In this document: positions 598 through 9,033 of the stretch, piece after piece | How positions within the stretch are numbered: the first letter of the stretch is position 1 | Layout: every line of letters begins with the position of its first letter | Sequence record: MK931441.1 | DNA length: 44,454 nt | Reading direction: 5' to 3' (one strand) | From: Escherichia phage Snoke | Made by a program: the position numbers and the translations under genes | Notes under the pieces: generated by a model | What the model was told of the DNA's origin: nothing | The model's input: the letters and a program-made list of their open reading frames with translations, nothing else | Database searches by the model: none

Positions 598-1844
598 GTA
601 TTCAGCTATCAGCCCCTCAGGCGCTGTTCCTGAACTGCGATAACAAATACAAGGCCTATGTCGGTGGCTTCGGCAGCGGCAAGACGTTTGTCGGCTGCCT
701 CGACCTGCTTACGTTCATGCTTAAGCACCCTGGTACGCGCCTTGGCTACTTCGGACCGACCTACCCAGCTATCCGCGACATCTTCTACCCCACGTTCGAG
801 GAAGCGGCTAACCTCCTTGGCCTCGATGTTCTGGTTAAATCCGGCGACAAAGAGGTCGTCGTTACGCGCGGTAAGACTGTAATTGGTACAGTAATCTGCC
901 GCTCGATGGATAACCCCGGCTCGATAGTCGGCTTCAAAATCGCTGCTGCGGTAGTCGATGAATTAGACGTACTGAGCCGTGAGAAAGCGGAGCTAGCGTG
1001 GAACAAAATCGTGGCCCGTATGCGTCTGGTTATCCCTGGCGTAATTAACCACATCTCCGTCACTACGACGCCGGAGGGGTTCAAGTTCGTCTACGCCAAG
1101 TTCAAAGAGAACCCGACACCTAGCTACTCTATGGTGCAGGCGTCAACTCATGAGAACGCCAGGTTCCTGCCGCCGGATTACATCAGCTCGCTGACCGAGA
1201 CCTACCCGGCGCAGTTGATTAACGCCTACCTTAATGGTGAGTTCGTTAACCTTACTTCTGGCAGTGTCTACTACGCCTACGACCGACGAAAGCACCGCAG
1301 TAAAGAGACAATCAAACCTGGTGACACCCTGTACATCGGGCAGGACTTCAACGTTACGAAAAACGCCAGCGCCGTGTATGTGCAACGCCCTAACGGGTGG
1401 CACGCGGTAGCAGAACTGAAAGGGCTGTTCGACACTCCTGACACCGTGCGCGTTATTACCGAGAAGTGGAAGTCGCAAGGCCACCGCATCGTCGTGTATC
1501 CGGATGCCAGCGGAAAGAACCGCAAGACCAACTCGGCGTCAATCTCTGACATAGCCTTACTCCAGCAGGCCGGGTTCGATGTGCGGGCTAAATCTGCCAA
1601 TCCGCCGGTTAAGGACCGTGTTTTAGCCGTGAATACCGCGCTGGAAAAAGGTAAGCTGTGGGTTAATGACCACTTATGCCCTGAGATAGCGAAGACGCTG
1701 GAGCAGCAGGCATACGACGATAAAGGAGAGCCAGCTAAAGACGGCGTAATCGACCATATGGCGGATGCCCTCGGCTATCCTGTAGTTTACGAGATGCCGG
1801 TGGTTAAACCCGTAATCAACATCCCGGTGACTTTCGCACTTTAA
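594..1844 (+). CDS. terminase large subunit
   Basis: Walker A GGFGSGKT and Walker B-like VVDELD in N-terminal ATPase region; conserved position before portal gene. Confidence 0.85.
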   Translation: MSIQLSAPQALFLNCDNKYKAYVGGFGSGKTFVGCLDLLTFMLKHPGTRLGYFGPTYPAIRDIFYPTFEEAANLLGLDVLVKSGDKEVVVTRGKTVIGTVICRSMDNPGSIVGFKIAAAVVDELDVLSREKAELAWNKIVARMRLVIPGVINHISVTTTPEGFKFVYAKFKENPTPSYSMVQASTHENARFLPPDYISSLTETYPAQLINAYLNGEFVNLTSGSVYYAYDRRKHRSKETIKPGDTLYIGQDFNVTKNASAVYVQRPNGWHAVAELKGLFDTPDTVRVITEKWKSQGHRIVVYPDASGKNRKTNSASISDIALLQQAGFDVRAKSANPPVKDRVLAVNTALEKGKLWVNDHLCPEIAKTLEQQAYDDKGEPAKDGVIDHMADALGYPVVYEMPVVKPVINIPVTFAL

Positions 1845-1856
1845 GAGGATTATTCA

Positions 1857-3338
1857 ATGTTAACTATGAACGGTCAGAATCAGGGTGTTAAGACAAAACA
1901 CCGGGAATGGCTGCATCACTTCGATAAATGGCAGAAGGTACGCCACGCACTGGAAGGCGACCTTATCCGTTACCTGCGTAACGTCGGGAAGAACGAGCCG
2001 GACCCGACCTACGCGGCACAGCGGCAGGAAGAATACGAGAACGGCGCTATCTGCTACAACTTCACTAAACGTACCCTGGCGGGGATGGTCGGCAGTGTCA
2101 TGCGCAAAGACCCTGAGCAGATTATTCCGCCTGAACTGGAGTACCTGCTACGTAATGCCGACGGTTCCGGTGTCGGGCTGTGGCAGCACGCGCAGGACAC
2201 GCTGATGGAAATTGACTCAGTAGGCCGTGGCGGGTTGCTGGTGGACGCGCCGGAGACAGCAGCGGCAACGGCAGCAGAGCAGAACGCAGGATTATTAAAC
2301 CCGGTCATCGCGTTCTACACTGCGGAGAACATCATCAACTGGCGACTGACCCGCATCGGTTCGGTTAACCGTGTGACAATGGTCGTGCTGCGTGAGGTGT
2401 GGGAATACTCAGAACCTGGCGCAGAGTTTGAAACAAAGTTCGGTGAACAATACCGCGTTCTCGATTTGATTGACGGGCGCTACCGCCAGCGCATTTACCG
2501 CTTCGATGCCGAAGGTGGTGCGCAGGATGAAGTAATCGAAATATTCCCGGAACTCGGCGAACAGTTACGCGGTAAAATCCCGTTTACGTTCATTGGGGCA
2601 AGCAACAACGACGCCACTATAGACGATGCGCCTTTGCTGCCGTTGGCTGAACTCAATATCGGGCATTTCCGCAACAGCGCAGACAATGAGGAGTCCAGCT
2701 TCGTTGTAGGCCAGCCCACTCTGTTCATCGCCCCGGGCGGGAATATGAGCATGGAGCAGTGGAAAGAAGCCAACCCACACGGGGTACGCATGGGGTCGCG
2801 TTCAGGCCATAACATCGGTGAGGGCGGCAATGCGTTTCTGGTTCAGGCGGGGGAGAACAACCTCGCCAAGCAGAACATGCTGGATAAAGAGAATCAGGCC
2901 CTCCAGATTGGCGCACAGCTTATTACCCCGACGCAGCAAATCACCGCTGAATCGGCCCGTCTGCAACGTGGCGCTGATACGTCTGTTATGTCGACAATCG
3001 CACGTAACGTAAGCATGGCGTACACCGATGCGTTGCGCTGGGTAGCTGCGATGCTCGGGCTTAGTGACGGTACTGAGATTGAGTTCAAGCTGAATATGGA
3101 GTTCTTCCTGCAACCGATGACCGCTCAGGACCGCGCTCAGTGGATGGCGGACATTAATGCCGGTCTGCTGCCAGCGACCGCATACTACGCCGCGTTGCGT
3201 AAAGCAGGGGTGACTGACTGGACCGACGAGGATATTCAGAACGCTATTGAGGACGCACCTCTGCCGTTAGGTGCTGTTACTCAGGTGGCAGGAGAGATTC
3301 CGCAGTCGGTGCAGCAACAAGATGTCACTCAGCAGTAA
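1857..3338 (+). CDS. portal protein (putative)
   Basis: 493-aa ORF between large terminase and head morphogenesis gene; size and position typical of portal; no motif check possible by eye. Confidence 0.65.
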   Translation: MLTMNGQNQGVKTKHREWLHHFDKWQKVRHALEGDLIRYLRNVGKNEPDPTYAAQRQEEYENGAICYNFTKRTLAGMVGSVMRKDPEQIIPPELEYLLRNADGSGVGLWQHAQDTLMEIDSVGRGGLLVDAPETAAATAAEQNAGLLNPVIAFYTAENIINWRLTRIGSVNRVTMVVLREVWEYSEPGAEFETKFGEQYRVLDLIDGRYRQRIYRFDAEGGAQDEVIEIFPELGEQLRGKIPFTFIGASNNDATIDDAPLLPLAELNIGHFRNSADNEESSFVVGQPTLFIAPGGNMSMEQWKEANPHGVRMGSRSGHNIGEGGNAFLVQAGENNLAKQNMLDKENQALQIGAQLITPTQQITAESARLQRGADTSVMSTIARNVSMAYTDALRWVAAMLGLSDGTEIEFKLNMEFFLQPMTAQDRAQWMADINAGLLPATAYYAALRKAGVTDWTDEDIQNAIEDAPLPLGAVTQVAGEIPQSVQQQDVTQQ

Positions 3339-3348
3339 GTTCACATAT

Positions 3349-3370
3349 AGCCCCGAAAGGGGCTTTCTTA
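3349..3370 (+). terminator. stem-loop / weak intrinsic terminator after portal gene
   Basis: AGCCCC-GAAA-GGGGCT hairpin followed by TTCTTA. Confidence 0.4.
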
Positions 3371-3374
3371 TAGT

Positions 3375-5267
3375 ATGCTATTAACTTTAGCGCCACAGGG
3401 TTTATCTATGAGCTTACTTACATCTCTAATCAGCCACCAGATATGGCTGCAACGCACTGCATCCGGTGAGGTGAAAGACCTCGCGCCGTTCATTAAGGAG
3501 ATGCGGGACGAAATAAAACGGCAGGTGCTGTTATTCGGTGACGACGGGCGGAGCACTGCGCGACTGAATAAACTGTTACTCGACCTTGAAGAAGCGCTAA
3601 CCGGACTTACCGGCGATTGGCAAACAAAGCTGACAGAAGACCTTATGGAACTGGCGGCGTATGAGGCCGAGTGGAATGTAAAGACACTGACCACCAACGT
3701 AGATGCGGAATTTGTTACGCCTACTGCCGAACAGGTGTGGTCCGCTGCCGAGTTTCAACCCTTATCATTAAGCGACAAGCCTGTTGATTTCACTAAGCTG
3801 ATGTCGGGATGGGGTGAAACCGAAGTAGCACGTCTCGTAACCGGCGTTAAGATGGGCTTTGTTCAGGGTAAGACAACACGGCAGATTGTTAAGAATGTTG
3901 TTGGTGCTGGTGGTTTGGCGGACATTTCAGAACGTAACGCGGCTACTGTAATCCGCACCGCGCTGTCTCATGTATCCAACGAGGCCCGTAACGAGACGTA
4001 CCGCCAGAACGACGACATCATCGAGAAGTACGAGTGGGTGTCGACGCTGGACAGCCGTACCAGTACGATTTGTAGGGCCAGAGACGGAATGACGTGGGAA
4101 ATCGGTAAGGGGCCGATGCCCCCGGCCCATCCGAATTGTTTACTTGGGGACACTGTAGTATCTACCGGTAGTCCTGTTTCTAACATTTTTAAACGGGCGT
4201 ACAAAGGCACTGTAGTCTATGTCTCTACAAAGTCCGGTCGCACCTTGTCTATCACCCCAAACCACCAGGTATTGACTACCAGTGGTTGGGTTGCTTCCGG
4301 CCTTCTCAATGTAGGTGACAAGCTCGTGTGCGCTAAGGACTCTACTCTCTCTCTCAAGCATAAGGAACACAACGTTGTAGCCAAGTTCTCCGATTTGTTT
4401 AGTGCGGCTAATGTAGCGGTCAATCCTGCGGCGGTCCGTACAAGCCCAACCTCCACCGAAGACTTCCACGGCGACGGAACCGACGGCGAAGTCGAGATTG
4501 TACTTGTCGACCGCCTTTCCTGGGATAAAGTCAAGTCCGGACTGAATAAGCAAATCATTGACAAGGAACTCCCAGTGACTGCCGGCGTTGATGACTCCCT
4601 CCCTGGCTTTGGCTCTGCGAAGCAGTTCGGCATGGTCGGCCTTTCTCCCTCGGACAGCTTCGTGCGCGGCGGCAGAGAGAGCGAGGCGCTCCTCGGGAGT
4701 AGCTTTAGCCATTCTGATAAACATAGCGTCGCTACCTCCGCGAATGGTAACGCCGTTCTCTCTGAGAACGCGTATGACTGGACTACACGAAACGCCGATA
4801 ATCTTTCCGATTTCAACTGGTCCGATGCCGTTGGCGTAGAGCTTGATGATGTTGTCAATTTGGTCTTTAGTGAAGCTGATTTTTGCGGGCATGTTTATAA
4901 CCTCGAAAATGAACAGAACTGGTATCTTGCGAATGGAATTATAGCACATAACTGTCGCTCAACAACCGCGCCTGTAATCAGTTCGGAGTTCGACTTCCTC
5001 GATAAAGGCGCAAAACGCGCGGCTAAGGGCGCGGACGGCGGTATGCAGGTAAGCGCGGACACCACCTATTACGAGTTCCTGAAACAACAACCGGCATGGT
5101 TTCAGGACCAGGCGCTTGGTTCTGTTCGCGGTAAGATTTTCCGCAACAGCGGTATATCACCAGAGGAGTTTCGCGTAATATCTGTAGATGGTTTCGGGAA
5201 TCCGCTCACGCTTAAGCAGATGGCGGAACTCGATAAACGTGTTGCTGATTATCTGAAAGGGGATTAA
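3375..5267 (+). CDS. head morphogenesis protein precursor (Mu F / SPP1 gp7-like) containing an intein
   Basis: Extein carries the minor-head-protein signature DSRTSTICRARDG...PPAHPN-C-R; 630-aa precursor = about 358-aa extein plus 272-aa intein. Confidence 0.8.
   Translation: MLLTLAPQGLSMSLLTSLISHQIWLQRTASGEVKDLAPFIKEMRDEIKRQVLLFGDDGRSTARLNKLLLDLEEALTGLTGDWQTKLTEDLMELAAYEAEWNVKTLTTNVDAEFVTPTAEQVWSAAEFQPLSLSDKPVDFTKLMSGWGETEVARLVTGVKMGFVQGKTTRQIVKNVVGAGGLADISERNAATVIRTALSHVSNEARNETYRQNDDIIEKYEWVSTLDSRTSTICRARDGMTWEIGKGPMPPAHPNCLLGDTVVSTGSPVSNIFKRAYKGTVVYVSTKSGRTLSITPNHQVLTTSGWVASGLLNVGDKLVCAKDSTLSLKHKEHNVVAKFSDLFSAANVAVNPAAVRTSPTSTEDFHGDGTDGEVEIVLVDRLSWDKVKSGLNKQIIDKELPVTAGVDDSLPGFGSAKQFGMVGLSPSDSFVRGGRESEALLGSSFSHSDKHSVATSANGNAVLSENAYDWTTRNADNLSDFNWSDAVGVELDDVVNLVFSEADFCGHVYNLENEQNWYLANGIIAHNCRSTTAPVISSEFDFLDKGAKRAAKGADGGMQVSADTTYYEFLKQQPAWFQDQALGSVRGKIFRNSGISPEEFRVISVDGFGNPLTLKQMAELDKRVADYLKGD
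4137..4952 (+). mobile_element. intein (Hint domain), 272 aa
   Basis: Begins Cys1 CLLGDTVV (block A), SITPNHQVLT (block B, TxxH), ends VYNLENEQNWYLANGIIAHN (blocks F/G, terminal HN) followed by Cys+1 at 4953; splits conserved extein motif HPN|CR. Confidence 0.8.
4140..4892 (-). CDS. HTH + Vsr/DUF559-like PD-(D/E)XK endonuclease, candidate homing endonuclease encoded antisense to the intein
   Basis: Minus-strand ORF coextensive with the intein; ATG at 4892 preceded by GAGG with 8-nt spacer; N-terminal HTH (ISFTKDQIDNIIKLYANGIGPVEIGKIIGVSCSPVIRVLRENG) and nuclease signature SHWEFLVNDLL...YNLDFAVGSVAVEVFGGGW...RRRIDRYISRTKQIGELGYNVVF; ORF track gives upstream ATG at 4949 without SD. Confidence 0.6.
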   Translation of the reverse strand: MPAKISFTKDQIDNIIKLYANGIGPVEIGKIIGVSCSPVIRVLRENGVTIRGGSDAMFIRMAKATPEERLALSAAAHEAVRGRKADHAELLRRAKAREGVINAGSHWEFLVNDLLIQSGLDFIPGKAVDKYNLDFAVGSVAVEVFGGGWACTDRRRIDRYISRTKQIGELGYNVVFLMLERESRVLSAHELVTYIEKAGSNPTTGSQYLVVWGDRQGATGLCRDIDYSAFVRPFKNVRNRTTGRYYSVPK

Positions 5268-5728
5268 TGATGGGCTTTTTTAAAGTAACTGATGTGCCGT
5301 CGCGTCGCGTAGTCCAGTACGCCCGTGTATCCGGTTCTGGTGAGAACGTGGTGTCTATTGGGGACGAAAGTGTACTAGGTACACCGGTAGACGAGATGCC
5401 GTATGCGGACAAGACCGGTATCGCACTCTCTGCTGCTGGTATGCTTTATGAGATTCCGTATCGGGCAGATGCTGGTGATGTGTATTTCTCTGTGCAACCG
5501 AAAGACACCGAGCTGGTCGACGGTAGCGCCACCATCACCGTCGAAGTTAAGGCGGGTAAAGCGCCGTATGTACTGACCTGGTACAAAGACGGGAAGGAAG
5601 TGGTGAACGTCCCGGAAGAGGCTCTGTCTCTGACTGTTAATGCGGCTGGTGAATACTTCGTTAAAGTTACTGATGCCGATGGTGCGGAGGCCGTAAGCAA
5701 AGCGGCGAAGGTCTCTAAACCAGGATGA
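5267..5728 (+). CDS. Ig-like domain protein (virion-associated, function unknown)
   Basis: C-terminal beta-rich repeat with YVLTWYKDGKEV motif typical of bacterial Ig-like domains; start overlaps stop of morphogenesis gene. Confidence 0.5.
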   Translation: MMGFFKVTDVPSRRVVQYARVSGSGENVVSIGDESVLGTPVDEMPYADKTGIALSAAGMLYEIPYRADAGDVYFSVQPKDTELVDGSATITVEVKAGKAPYVLTWYKDGKEVVNVPEEALSLTVNAAGEYFVKVTDADGAEAVSKAAKVSKPG

Positions 5729-5730
5729 TA

Positions 5731-5760
5731 AAAGGCCCCATAATGGGGCCTTAGTTTTAT
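5731..5760. terminator. bidirectional intrinsic terminator
   Basis: AGGCCCCA-TAA-TGGGGCCT hairpin flanked by A-run upstream and T-run downstream, between convergent genes. Confidence 0.7.
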
Positions 5761-6278
5761 TTAAATCGCGCGGGCATTAACACCATAAAGGCCGTGTTTG
5801 AAAATTGTATTTTGCATCCTCTGGTTTGGTCCTGGAAATCGAAACGAGCAATTTCATTTTTGTATGCCTTAGAAATCTTGTACGCGTCTGCCAAATAGCG
5901 CAGAGTGAACCCTATACTACCGACAACACCCGGTGTGATGTGCGCCACGCGTCTCCAGTCAGGAAAGTTTCCTTCTACAACATCTACCGGAAGTGTACAT
6001 ATAAGCGCACGATTATCGTCATAGAAAGATACACTGCCGTTGTCGTGGTCTACCTCTGCGTAGTTAAATTTAGAAGGCTCTCTCCCTTTAATGTCGACGA
6101 GAACCCCTTTCTCAACGTTCGTCTTCACATTGTCGCAGAACAATCTATGACCGTCCGTAGACACTATCAATCCTTCAGGGTCTATGTAAAAAGCGTTCAA
6201 ATAGTAGCGAACATCATTTTTAGCCCTGCATATTTTCGCCCCTACATACGCAGGGAAAGTAATTACTGTAGTAACCAT
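5757..6278 (-). CDS. truncated DnaN-like protein (beta sliding clamp homolog, domain II plus partial domain III)
   Basis: 173 aa; DVRYYLNAF...STDGHRLFC, EGNFPDWRRV, IGFTLRYLADA and C-terminal FMVLMPARFK match, in order and spacing, E. coli DnaN motifs DVRYYLNG...ATDGHRLAVC, DGRFPDYRRV, IGFNVSYVLDVLNA and YVVMPMRL; strong SD AGGAGG 6 nt before ATG. Confidence 0.6.
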   Translation of the reverse strand: MVTTVITFPAYVGAKICRAKNDVRYYLNAFYIDPEGLIVSTDGHRLFCDNVKTNVEKGVLVDIKGREPSKFNYAEVDHDNGSVSFYDDNRALICTLPVDVVEGNFPDWRRVAHITPGVVGSIGFTLRYLADAYKISKAYKNEIARFDFQDQTRGCKIQFSNTAFMVLMPARFK

Positions 6279-7155: not shown

Positions 7156-7237
7156 TTGCCTTGTATGTTGGAATAATTTATTCTTGACATGTAAATCCGG
7201 GAGGCCCGGATTCCAACGTCCAGGGGACATACTGACT

Positions 7238-7939
7238 ATGAATCGTTTTTTACACTATCCGTTCCAGGAAGAAGCTGGGGCAGAAGATAAATCCGGCGGT
7301 GGCGACGCTCCAAAAATGTTCACCGCTGAAGAAGTTCAGGCGATGATTGAGAAAGAAGTTGCCGGACTTAAGGCCAATCAGGAAGCATTGCTGGCGGAGA
7401 AGAAAGAAGCCGCCCGTAAAGCAAAAGAGGCCGAAGAGGAACGTCAGCGCGCGCACCAGGAGGCGCTAAAAGCCGCCGGTAAGATGGACGAGTTCGAAAA
7501 GACGATTCGTAGCCAGTATGACCCGGTGTTAGCCGAGAAAGATGGTCGCATCACCAAAATGGCTGAGCGCATCCTCGGCAGCGAACGTAAAGCGGTGTTA
7601 GGCTCTTTCGCAGGTGATTTCATCACACCGGAAGCAGTAGACATTCTTGCTCCGTTCGTTAAGACTGAGTTTGAAGGCGATGACGTGGTTACTAAGTTTG
7701 TTGGTGCAGACGGCAACGTAATCACAACTGACCCGGAACAGTTCCGCAAATACCTGCGTGAACACAAAGCGTTTTCGCATTTGATTAAAGCAAATGCAGC
7801 TTCCGGCGGCGGGGCTTCCGGCGGCAAAGGCGGCGGGGCCGCACCAGCGTTTAAAGACATGAACGAAGCGGAGCGTTTAGCTCTGTACAAATCGAACCCT
7901 GCCGAATTTGAACGGCAACTTAAAGCCCTGAGGAAATAA
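7238..7939 (+). CDS. scaffolding protein (putative)
   Basis: Charged, helix-prone, A/E/K-rich protein immediately upstream of major capsid gene; start taken at first ATG (ORF track extends to 7184). Confidence 0.5.
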   Translation: MNRFLHYPFQEEAGAEDKSGGGDAPKMFTAEEVQAMIEKEVAGLKANQEALLAEKKEAARKAKEAEEERQRAHQEALKAAGKMDEFEKTIRSQYDPVLAEKDGRITKMAERILGSERKAVLGSFAGDFITPEAVDILAPFVKTEFEGDDVVTKFVGADGNVITTDPEQFRKYLREHKAFSHLIKANAASGGGASGGKGGGAAPAFKDMNEAERLALYKSNPAEFERQLKALRK

Positions 7940-7941
7940 TA

Positions 7942-8991
7942 ATGGCAATTACCACTATCGGCGATATCGTAACTGGCAACGTACCCGTCCTTCTGTCCTA
8001 TATGACTGAGGACCCGGTAGAGAAAACTGCGTTCTTCCAGTCCGGCATCCTGGCCCCGACCCCGTACGCTGCTGAGATTGCTCGCGGTCCGTCCAACGTC
8101 GCTAATATTCCTTTCTGGAAAGCGATTGATACCTCTATCGAGCCGAACTACTCGAACGATGTATATCAGGACATCGCCACTCCACGCAACGTACAAACCG
8201 GTGAGATGATGGCACGCGTCGCTTATCTGAACGAAGGCTTCGGACAGGCAGACCTGACTGTTGAACTGACCAGCCAGAACCCGCTGCAATCTGTTGCCGC
8301 TCGTCTGGATAACTTCTGGCAGCGTCAGGCACAGCGCCGTCTGATTGCTACCGCTCTCGGCCTGTATAACGACAACGTAACGGCAACCGATGCTTACCAC
8401 GAGCAGAACGACATGGTTATCGACGTGTCTGCGACTCTGGGCTTCGATTCTGGCGCGTTCATTGACGCTACCCAAACCATGGGTGACGCGCTGATGGGTA
8501 ATGGTGGTGAAGTGCTGGGGGCAATCGCGATGCATAGCTTCGTGTATGCGCAGGCGCGTAAGCAACAGCTTATCGACTTCATCCGCGATGCCGACAACAA
8601 CACCATGTTCGCCACCTACCAGGGCTACCGCGTGATTGTTGACGACAGCATGACCGTAGTTGGTACTGACTCTAGCCGTAAGTTCATCTCCATCATCTTC
8701 GGCAACGGTGCTATCGGTTATGGTGAAGGCAACCCGTCCAACCCGCTGGAATATGAACGCGAAGCGTCTCGCGGTAACGGTGGTGGCGTAGAAACCCTGT
8801 GGACTCGTAAGACCTGGCTGCTGCACCCACTGGGCTACAGCTTCACCAGCGCGGTAATCACCGGCAACGGCACCGAGACTACCCCACGCTCCGCTTCCTG
8901 GCAGGACCTGGCAAACGCCTCCAACTGGAACCGTGTTGTTGACCGCAAGCATGTACCGATTGCCTTCCTGGTAACTGGTGTCGGGGCTTAA
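7942..8991 (+). CDS. major capsid protein
   Basis: 349-aa ORF after scaffold, good SD GAGGA, followed by strong hairpin; position and size typical of major capsid protein. Confidence 0.7.
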   Translation: MAITTIGDIVTGNVPVLLSYMTEDPVEKTAFFQSGILAPTPYAAEIARGPSNVANIPFWKAIDTSIEPNYSNDVYQDIATPRNVQTGEMMARVAYLNEGFGQADLTVELTSQNPLQSVAARLDNFWQRQAQRRLIATALGLYNDNVTATDAYHEQNDMVIDVSATLGFDSGAFIDATQTMGDALMGNGGEVLGAIAMHSFVYAQARKQQLIDFIRDADNNTMFATYQGYRVIVDDSMTVVGTDSSRKFISIIFGNGAIGYGEGNPSNPLEYEREASRGNGGGVETLWTRKTWLLHPLGYSFTSAVITGNGTETTPRSASWQDLANASNWNRVVDRKHVPIAFLVTGVGA

Positions 8992-9006
8992 GGTTAAGAT
9001 ATAATC

Positions 9007-9033
9007 GAGAGGGACTTCGGTCCCTCTTTTCAT
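9007..9033 (+). terminator. intrinsic terminator/attenuator after capsid gene
   Basis: GAGGGAC-TTCG-GTCCCTC hairpin followed by TTTTCAT. Confidence 0.6.

Follow-up and report, generated by a model that had tools for sequence, protein, structure and literature searches.

A class-1 intein in the minor head protein gene

Why should an intein hold roughly 170 residues between its two splicing lobes that are predicted to adopt no fold at all? The question is raised by the MuF-like minor head (head morphogenesis) protein gene of Escherichia phage Snoke, whose sequence record MK931441.1 (44,454 nucleotides (nt), one strand) forms the window analysed here. The answer we consider very probable is that the locus houses a bidirectional, fully overlapping selfish module: an intein and, antisense to it on the same stretch of DNA, a homing endonuclease.

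The host gene corresponds to a maximal open reading frame (ORF) of 630 codons (3375..5267, + strand) that runs without interruption in the ORF list, and the Pfam model Phage_Mu_F matches amino acids (aa) 159-255 of its product (E 2.4e-11). Inserted at ...PPAHPN|CRSTTAP are 272 in-frame codons (4137..4952, +); translation of 4137-4955 yields a segment that begins with CLLGDTVV, includes SITPNHQVLT, terminates in NGIIAHN and is followed by Cys. An earlier note, made from the sequence alone, had read this insert as an intein splitting a conserved minor-head motif and had proposed a search with a Hint-domain profile. The Intein_splicing family (PF14890) indeed matched the insert at 41.9 bits, above its gathering score of 35.8, with E 1.2e-10, and all class-1 signature residues were found: C1 (4137-4139), T40-P-N-H43 of block B (4254-4265), H271-N272 at the end of blocks F/G (GHVYNLENEQNWYLANGIIAHN, 4887-4952) and the +1 Cys (4953-4955). 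In the homologue alignment, C1, T40, N42, H43, G251-L256, H271, N272 and C273 were invariant. The motif is split in the predicted way, as natural intein-less alleles are colinear over the junction: they aligned in a single piece, over 100% of its length, to a synthetic spliced junction with 300 nt on each side, and 145 phage records span at least 80% of that junction. The interpretation as a class-1 Hint-type intein at a conserved MuF motif is thus supported, and incomplete in one respect, namely the antisense endonuclease gene, which had gone unseen.

Residues 67-234 of the intein (4335..4838, +) constitute a translated sense-frame linker, for which AlphaFold2 (AF2) returned no fold, with per-residue confidence scores (pLDDT) of 20-46. 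For the complete sense product of the intein, overall confidence was 41.6, and pLDDT reached 65-78 only at residues 21-60 and 241-250. A Foldseek search with this product listed intein splicing domains as 50 of the 50 best matches, all of them weak (E ~1e-3, 53-68 columns).

Selection acts on the antisense frame of the intein middle

The minus strand of the intein harbors a maximal ORF of 269 codons (4949..4140) that lies wholly inside it according to the ORF list. Its codons are in register with those of the intein, sense position 1 facing antisense position 3. As long in-register ORFs can arise by chance, selection was tested directly on this ORF: the MuF gene was aligned codon by codon with eight relatives, and the ratio of nonsynonymous to synonymous substitution rates (dN/dS, omega) was estimated for both frames by the method of Nei and Gojobori (NG86), with gene codons 326-495 taken as the intein middle.

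The exteins evolve as expected of a gene read from the plus strand alone, with substitutions at sense positions 1/2/3 of, e.g., 10/4/65, a sense omega of 0.04-0.13 and stops in the antisense frame; substitutions in the C-extein (4953..5267, stop codon included) likewise fall at sense third positions (1/1/20 versus relative L001). In the intein middle the pattern is a different one, at 59/8/27, 73/15/36 and 17/1/3 (chi-square p ~1e-9). Omega here was 0.85-1.12 in the sense and 0.14-0.16 in the antisense frame—decreasing to 0.07-0.08 over the nuclease core described below, across dS of about 0.5-1.2—and amino-acid identity was 0.78-0.98 in the antisense versus 0.53-0.90 in the sense frame. The intein middle is therefore under purifying selection in its antisense frame, while the sense frame is neutral and only kept stop-free.

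Toward the intein ends, constraint on the sense frame returns. The C-terminal splicing block has a sense omega of 0.03-0.05 (substitutions of, e.g., 1/1/7), and the N-terminal Hint lobe with blocks A and B (19/11/21) is little diverged in either frame, so both frames appear to be constrained there. The 19 codons upstream of an internal ATG at 4892 evolve in the sense frame only (0/0/7), which places the start of the antisense protein at 4892 rather than at 4949. The antisense gene so delimited (4140..4892, −) comprises 250 codons plus a stop codon (4142-4140), to which intein codon 2 (TTA) is complementary.

Given the genome's use of TTA, CTA and TCA, the chance of finding the frame open is ~4e-4 for the endonuclease and ~6e-6 for the sense frame. 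Both frames are also open in the AT-rich (42-44% GC) phage Aaphi23 and Vibrio phages, and in all 12 independent loci examined. As a control served a 529-codon, ATG-initiated ORF (7444..9033, −) that lies opposite, and in register with, the scaffold (7184..7939) and major capsid (7942..8991) genes. First suspected to be a second antisense gene, it was recognized as a chance shadow by its substitution pattern, which is sense-only (14/6/89 and 25/15/153), and by the three stops that interrupt its capsid-gene part in phage PhiSTP2.

The antisense product is a predicted Vsr-like nuclease

From an alignment of only 14 sequences, AF2 modeled the 250-aa antisense product with a mean pLDDT of 84.9, confidently predicting a Vsr-like alpha/beta nuclease fold. 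An N-terminal helix-turn-helix (HTH) DNA-binding module (aa 8-45; 4758..4871, −), of which Snoke has one and many relatives two, precedes a Vsr-like/PD-(D/E)XK nuclease core (aa 105-200; 4293..4580, −). The acidic, putatively catalytic residues E108 (4571-4569), D134 (4493-4491) and E143 (4466-4464) belong to the motifs E108, Y131-N132-x-D134 and V142-E143 that are invariant among the family members aligned. The strand that bears E143, VAVEVF, is the codon-for-codon complement of the invariant sense motif EDFHGD.

Links to known nucleases emerged at the level of the family. As a single query against PDB sequences, the antisense protein found nothing useful and a family profile was required; that profile (A1) matched the sequence of the homing endonuclease I-Bth0305I (3R3P) with an E value of 2.2e-6. 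Pfam assigned MTES_1575 to 8 and DUF559 to 3 of 14 family members, the Snoke protein by itself scoring only 0.1 against MTES_1575, and a PHROGs search returned only weak matches to 'DNA binding protein'. As to the size of the intein, the earlier note rightly remarked that it is intermediate between mini-inteins and endonuclease-containing ones, yet the surplus is neither a degenerate nor a novel in-frame domain, but the footprint of the antisense endonuclease gene (4892..4140).

Presence, absence and movement of the intein

Among related records, 57 of 258 cover at least 80% of the intein-containing gene. Of the alleles found in IMG/VR relatives, 63 have no insert and read AH(PN/FG/AN)|CRS..., whereas in 11 the intein is present at the identical point. 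The intein is 98% identical between phages whose exteins are ~70% identical. In comparison with Salmonella phage PST-H1, nucleotide identity was 45-75% over the N-extein, 95-100% in the bins from 4135 through 4915 and 77-88% thereafter, the step coinciding with the intein borders at 4137 and 4952.

A near-isogenic intein-less counterpart is found in Escherichia phage Schulenburg (MK931438.1; L098), which is 99.1% identical to Snoke over 14.7 kb. Its MuF gene lacks the intein, and next to it comes a free-standing gene for an HNH endonuclease (4576..5145), absent from Snoke. The locus was compared segment by segment, since a global alignment, which forces the intein against C-extein and HNH gene, is meaningless. 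Up to 4130, a single nt out of 756 differs; at 4131-4136 all six do (PN vs FG); in the C-extein 71 of 315 positions differ, and identity returns at the decoration gene. The exchanged tract (Snoke 4131-5267, Schulenburg 4131-5148) begins six nt before the intein insertion point and extends to the start of the decoration gene. The two near-isogenic genomes accordingly carry two different putative selfish endonuclease elements at the same locus. Together, the 98% intein versus ~70% extein identity and the intein-less Schulenburg allele point to recent horizontal movement of the intein.

AHFG|C in place of AHPN|C is seen in Schulenburg as well as in 5 of the 63 intein-less IMG/VR alleles, including Escherichia phage vB_VIPECOTPH05A (L018); the alleles listed are L018, L040, L042, L048 and L098. 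The change involves six consecutive nt (CCGAAT to TTTGGG/A) directly 5′ of the intein site, and such an allele could represent an endonuclease-resistant target or the scar of an intein loss. A fixed co-converted C-extein stretch (CGCTCAACAACC) in the intein-bearing alleles was also considered and dropped, as its sharing proved inconsistent.

A large protein family with members opposite MuF genes

By tblastn, homologues of the antisense endonuclease were detected in 106 phage records. Among those listed, nearly all lie beneath MuF or minor head genes; in every fetched locus except one with a free-standing gene, they are on the strand opposite MuF. Phages of Vibrio (41% identity), Gordonia (35-37%, E 1e-25), Klebsiella, Aggregatibacter/Haemophilus and Helicobacter are represented, and three contigs from metagenomes or metagenome-assembled genomes show the two-strand architecture likewise. 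An exhaustive profile search retrieved 1,497 representatives (50%-identity clusters) at E<=1e-30 and 6,333 at E<=1e-10. A word-indexed protein database, in comparison, yielded just 14 sequences homologous to the antisense protein and 18 homologous to the intein, because an ORF embedded in this way is seldom called in annotation.

Of the 147 best family members, about half end in ...TG(R/Q)Y..(V/I)P(R/K), the mirror image of intein block A (CLxGD..V), and most also contain YxV(V/I)(W/R)G, which mirrors block B (TPNH). Judging by these motifs, such members probably come from inside inteins, too. Acinetobacter phage IME285 (L007) offers a different arrangement: its intein-less MuF gene (455-1348, +) converges, with an overlap of a few bases at the MuF 3′ end, on a free-standing endonuclease homologue (1342-2055, −) that keeps the E/D/E residues and is missing the block-B mirror motif. 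An ancestor, or a relative targeting the same gene, would be expected to look like this, and the arrangement is a plausible precursor state. The IME285 MuF gene ends ~15 codons past its PxC.C motif.

The family is not confined to MuF. A related intein with an antisense endonuclease gene splits the coding sequence of an RtcB RNA ligase at N|CHHNY (locus L095: RtcB with intein, GHVYNL...NGIIAHN|C, 2261-3787 (+); antisense endonuclease ORF, 2672-3346 (−)), an indication of extein switching between MuF and RtcB. The locus stems from a metagenomic contig on which RtcB adjoins a phage integrase and is apparently frameshifted between 1950-2498 and 2261-3787. A different intein is present in the MuF gene (1365-3356, −) of Escherichia phage fEg-Eco06, a Kagunavirus (L008). 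It is inserted ~25 codons upstream (RTST|C...VKN|CRARDG) and has a long antisense ORF of its own (1350-2567, +) that is only distantly related to the Snoke endonuclease (25% identity, E 2e-4).

Candidate expression signals within the splicing blocks

A Shine-Dalgarno-like GAGGT (4900..4904, −) resides seven nt before the endonuclease ATG, within the codons of intein block F (VYNLE). It is retained in most Jersey-like relatives, a Vibrio phage (L003) and two metagenome loci (L015, L016), and reads TAGGT in L010. Further upstream, 46 nt from the ATG at 4892, an extended –10 promoter-like element (TGCTATAAT; 4938..4946, −) arises opposite the codons ATT-ATA-GCA (I-I-A) of block G, as their complement, with a weak –35 element, TTGTTG (4965..4960, −), in the C-extein at a spacing of 16 nt. 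Of 14 intein-bearing sequences, 11 have a perfect TATAAT, distant ones (Vibrio, L016 and L017, at 60% GC) among them, while adjacent synonymous sites vary. We thus hypothesize that a minus-strand promoter and ribosome-binding site (RBS) are embedded in splicing-block codons.

A scan for terminators found none in 3900-5400. Downstream of the MuF locus, a GC-rich hairpin (AAGGCCCCATAATGGGGCCTT, 5732-5752), whose counterpart is annotated as a bidirectional terminator in Schulenburg, separates the decoration gene (+) from a convergent sliding-clamp-like gene (5757..6278, −). Because of this hairpin, transcription of the endonuclease by read-through from the latter gene is unlikely.

A proposed mechanism and its alternatives

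Splicing, antisense expression, the cleavage site and homing we infer from sequence, and the following sequence of events is proposed. Late plus-strand mRNA would be translated straight through 4137-4952, and some 66 residues from the N-terminal and 40 from the C-terminal end of the insert would come together as a Hint domain, which would cut out the insert and join ...PPAHPN to CRSTTAP..., so that an intact minor head protein results. The ~170 intervening residues would form a disordered loop whose sole job is to contain no stop codon. The minus strand would specify the 250-aa enzyme—an HTH module plus a Vsr-like (EDxHD-type) nuclease core—probably expressed from the extended –10 promoter and the GAGGT RBS within block G and F codons. 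In mixed infections, the endonuclease would cut intein-less MuF alleles near CATCCGAAT|TGYCG, and recombinational repair from an intein-bearing genome would copy intein and endonuclease gene together (homing).

A more far-reaching reading treats the whole 816-bp intein as one obligately dual-coding unit that represents the predominant form of the family and competes with free-standing HNH endonucleases for the locus; we advance it tentatively, as a close call that tips slightly against it. Block G and F codons would double as promoter, RBS and start codon of the endonuclease, and block A and B codons as its C-terminal strands and stop; with codons shared in this way, neither gene could move or decay alone. 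Were this correct, the dual-coding architecture would not be an actinophage curiosity, but would prevail in a family of >1,000 50%-identity clusters from phages of Proteobacteria, Actinobacteria and uncultured hosts, and competition with HNH elements would be exemplified by the Schulenburg/Snoke pair.

Several observations sit uneasily with an active two-strand module. The Hint fold is recovered weakly, given the low-confidence model and Foldseek E values of ~1e-3, and the Asp usual in block F of class-1 inteins is replaced by Asn (VYNLE). A two-hexamer promoter scan did not call the –10 element, the –35 is poor, and TATAAT is changed in 3 of 14 relatives. The residue following GGxW is His in many family members and Ala in the Snoke copy and its close relatives, so the catalytic chemistry of the Snoke enzyme may differ from that of other members. 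Finally, the YxVVWG and C-terminal TGRY..VPK motifs of the endonuclease may merely mirror splicing blocks A and B.

Could the antisense ORF then be an in-register shadow of an ordinary intein whose endonuclease is degenerate or absent? Such ORFs do exist in the Snoke genome, the 529-aa ORF at 7444..9033(−) being an example, and most annotators of related phages left the antisense ORF uncalled. However, the capsid shadow fails each of the tests that the intein antisense ORF passes: codon-position pattern, omega, persistence in relatives, a confidently predicted nuclease fold, distant homologues that include a free-standing gene, and a family of thousands. We regard this explanation as highly improbable. 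Just as little credence is due to the idea that the middle of the insert is a novel in-frame domain (endonuclease or DNA-binding), as in canonical bifunctional inteins. In its favor, the sense frame is free of stops and homologues share a few unvarying sense motifs (EDFHGD, H192); yet sense omega is about 0.9-1.1, identity is 0.53-0.62 in the sense versus 0.78-0.82 in the antisense frame, the model of this portion lacks a fold, and EDFHGD is accounted for as the codon-for-codon complement of the putative catalytic strand VAVEVF.

Removal of the insert as RNA, by an ORF-bearing group I or II intron, would have precedents, in that phage structural genes do carry such introns and the solved relative I-Bth0305I is intron-encoded. 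We consider it barely conceivable here: the sense frame is unbroken in all homologues, the Hint blocks are under strong sense-frame selection, and Rfam intron families gave no match in 3300-5800, even at E<=1. Each of the three readings treated so far (chance ORF, in-frame domain and RNA intron) is thus at odds with a direct test. An alternative that is merely unlikely concedes a real antisense gene, but one that is no longer a homing endonuclease: a decaying relic, a co-opted DNA-binding regulator, or a regulator of MuF through its antisense transcript. The single HTH module and the Ala after GGxW would fit such a loss, as would the vertical-looking inheritance that a 2025 preprint reports for some VSR-like groups (bioRxiv 10.1101/2025.01.02.630785). 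Against it stand the invariance of E108, D134 and E143 and an omega of ~0.07 over the nuclease core at dS of about 0.5-1.2, as well as the abrupt change in identity where the intein begins and ends and its presence or absence among near-identical genomes, both of which argue for recent movement.

Relation to known intein and endonuclease systems

With its antisense endonuclease, the Snoke intein belongs to a recently described, rare architecture. The preprint just cited (Gosselin, Arsenault & Gogarten) reports that minor capsid inteins of actinobacteriophages contain anti-sense endonucleases of the VSR-like and LAGLIDADG types, that the sense middle is unfolded and that HHpred gives a link to 3R3P. 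Snoke shares the MuF host, the contiguous intein, the antisense endonuclease, the unfolded sense middle and the 3R3P/EDxHD link, and antisense ORFs in MuF genes of Gordonia phages match its endonuclease with 35-37% identity (E 1e-25). Unlike those phages, Snoke is a Kagunavirus-like phage of E. coli; the preprint covers PhagesDB actinophages and makes no mention of enterobacterial phages or expression signals. In Snoke, the endonuclease ORF also spans the splicing blocks, with its stop at intein codon 2 and its putative RBS and start in block F, and the present analysis adds dN/dS evidence of antisense-frame selection. Inteins in Jerseyvirus capsid-morphogenesis proteins had already been noted in the literature (PMC8425127).

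Anti-sense LAGLIDADG endonucleases have been described for inteins of Synechocystis DnaX and a Chloroflexus SpoVR-like protein (Gorbalenya 1998, Gogarten 2002, as cited in 10.1101/2025.01.02.630785). Going by these descriptions, they resemble Snoke in having a contiguous intein with an endonuclease read from the opposite strand, and differ in endonuclease family and setting (LAGLIDADG in cellular hosts versus Vsr-like in a phage). In 'fractured genes', in turn, the intein is split and its two halves flank a free-standing gene for a Vsr-like endonuclease (Dassa et al. 2009, PMC2677866). Here, too, the Vsr-like/EDxHD family is associated with an intein without in-frame fusion in a phage or metagenomic setting; however, host gene and intein are split in two and spliced in trans, whereas the sense frame of Snoke is continuous and splicing predicted to occur in cis. 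As a consequence of that continuity, the endonuclease gene must avoid TTA, CTA and TCA codons.

I-Bth0305I (PDB 3R3P) is an EDxHD homing endonuclease from a group I intron in recA of phage 0305phi8-36 (Taylor et al. 2011, PMC3239194). In contrast to the Snoke enzyme, it is intron-encoded on the sense strand, has an unlike N-terminal DNA-binding region and shares only 17% identity. Hidden out-of-frame HNH endonucleases of the ShiLan type, which reside in methylase genes of phages (Arsenault et al. 2025, PMC11855218), similarly consist of an endonuclease ORF overprinted on an insertion that is kept open in the host frame, but they use the same strand in a shifted frame, belong to the HNH family and lack a splicing domain.

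New to this architecture are thus the selection figures, the candidate signals in splicing blocks, a near-isogenic intein-less partner and a large family that spans several host groups. Long antisense overlapping protein genes are contested in bacteria and phages, and annotation pipelines routinely discard them. The Snoke case provides, over 250 codons, evolutionary proof that both strands are read, with the enzyme frame selected and the other held open for a splicing domain. It also shows how a free-standing endonuclease may colonize an intein without fusion, a point of relevance to the view that inteins originated by 'splicing first, endonuclease later'. As a coliphage with the 99%-identical Schulenburg and many further intein-less relatives (including some of the BASEL collection, such as Bas70-76 with AHPN|C), Snoke renders the mechanism testable in E. 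coli, whereas actinophage systems are harder to work with. For other phage inteins labelled 'mini' or 'degenerate', the opposite strand is worth checking.

Start codon and neighborhood of the MuF gene

The MuF gene is preceded by a portal gene (1857..3338) and followed by the gene for an Ig-like decoration protein (5267..5728). The ATG at 3375 has no Shine-Dalgarno sequence and a terminator hairpin before it, while the ATG at 3408 (Met12) has AGGG eight nt upstream and is the start annotated in most records (619-codon form). For these reasons we take 3408 to be the likely true start, and the MuF precursor and spliced product probably comprise 619 and 347 aa, rather than 630 and 358. Of the product sizes expected in the earlier note, that of the free intein (272 aa) is retained and that of the spliced protein (358 aa) is probably to be corrected. 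The terminator-like hairpin itself, GCCCCGAAAGGGGC followed by TTTCTT, occupies 3345-3374, between the portal stop codon and the ATG at 3375.

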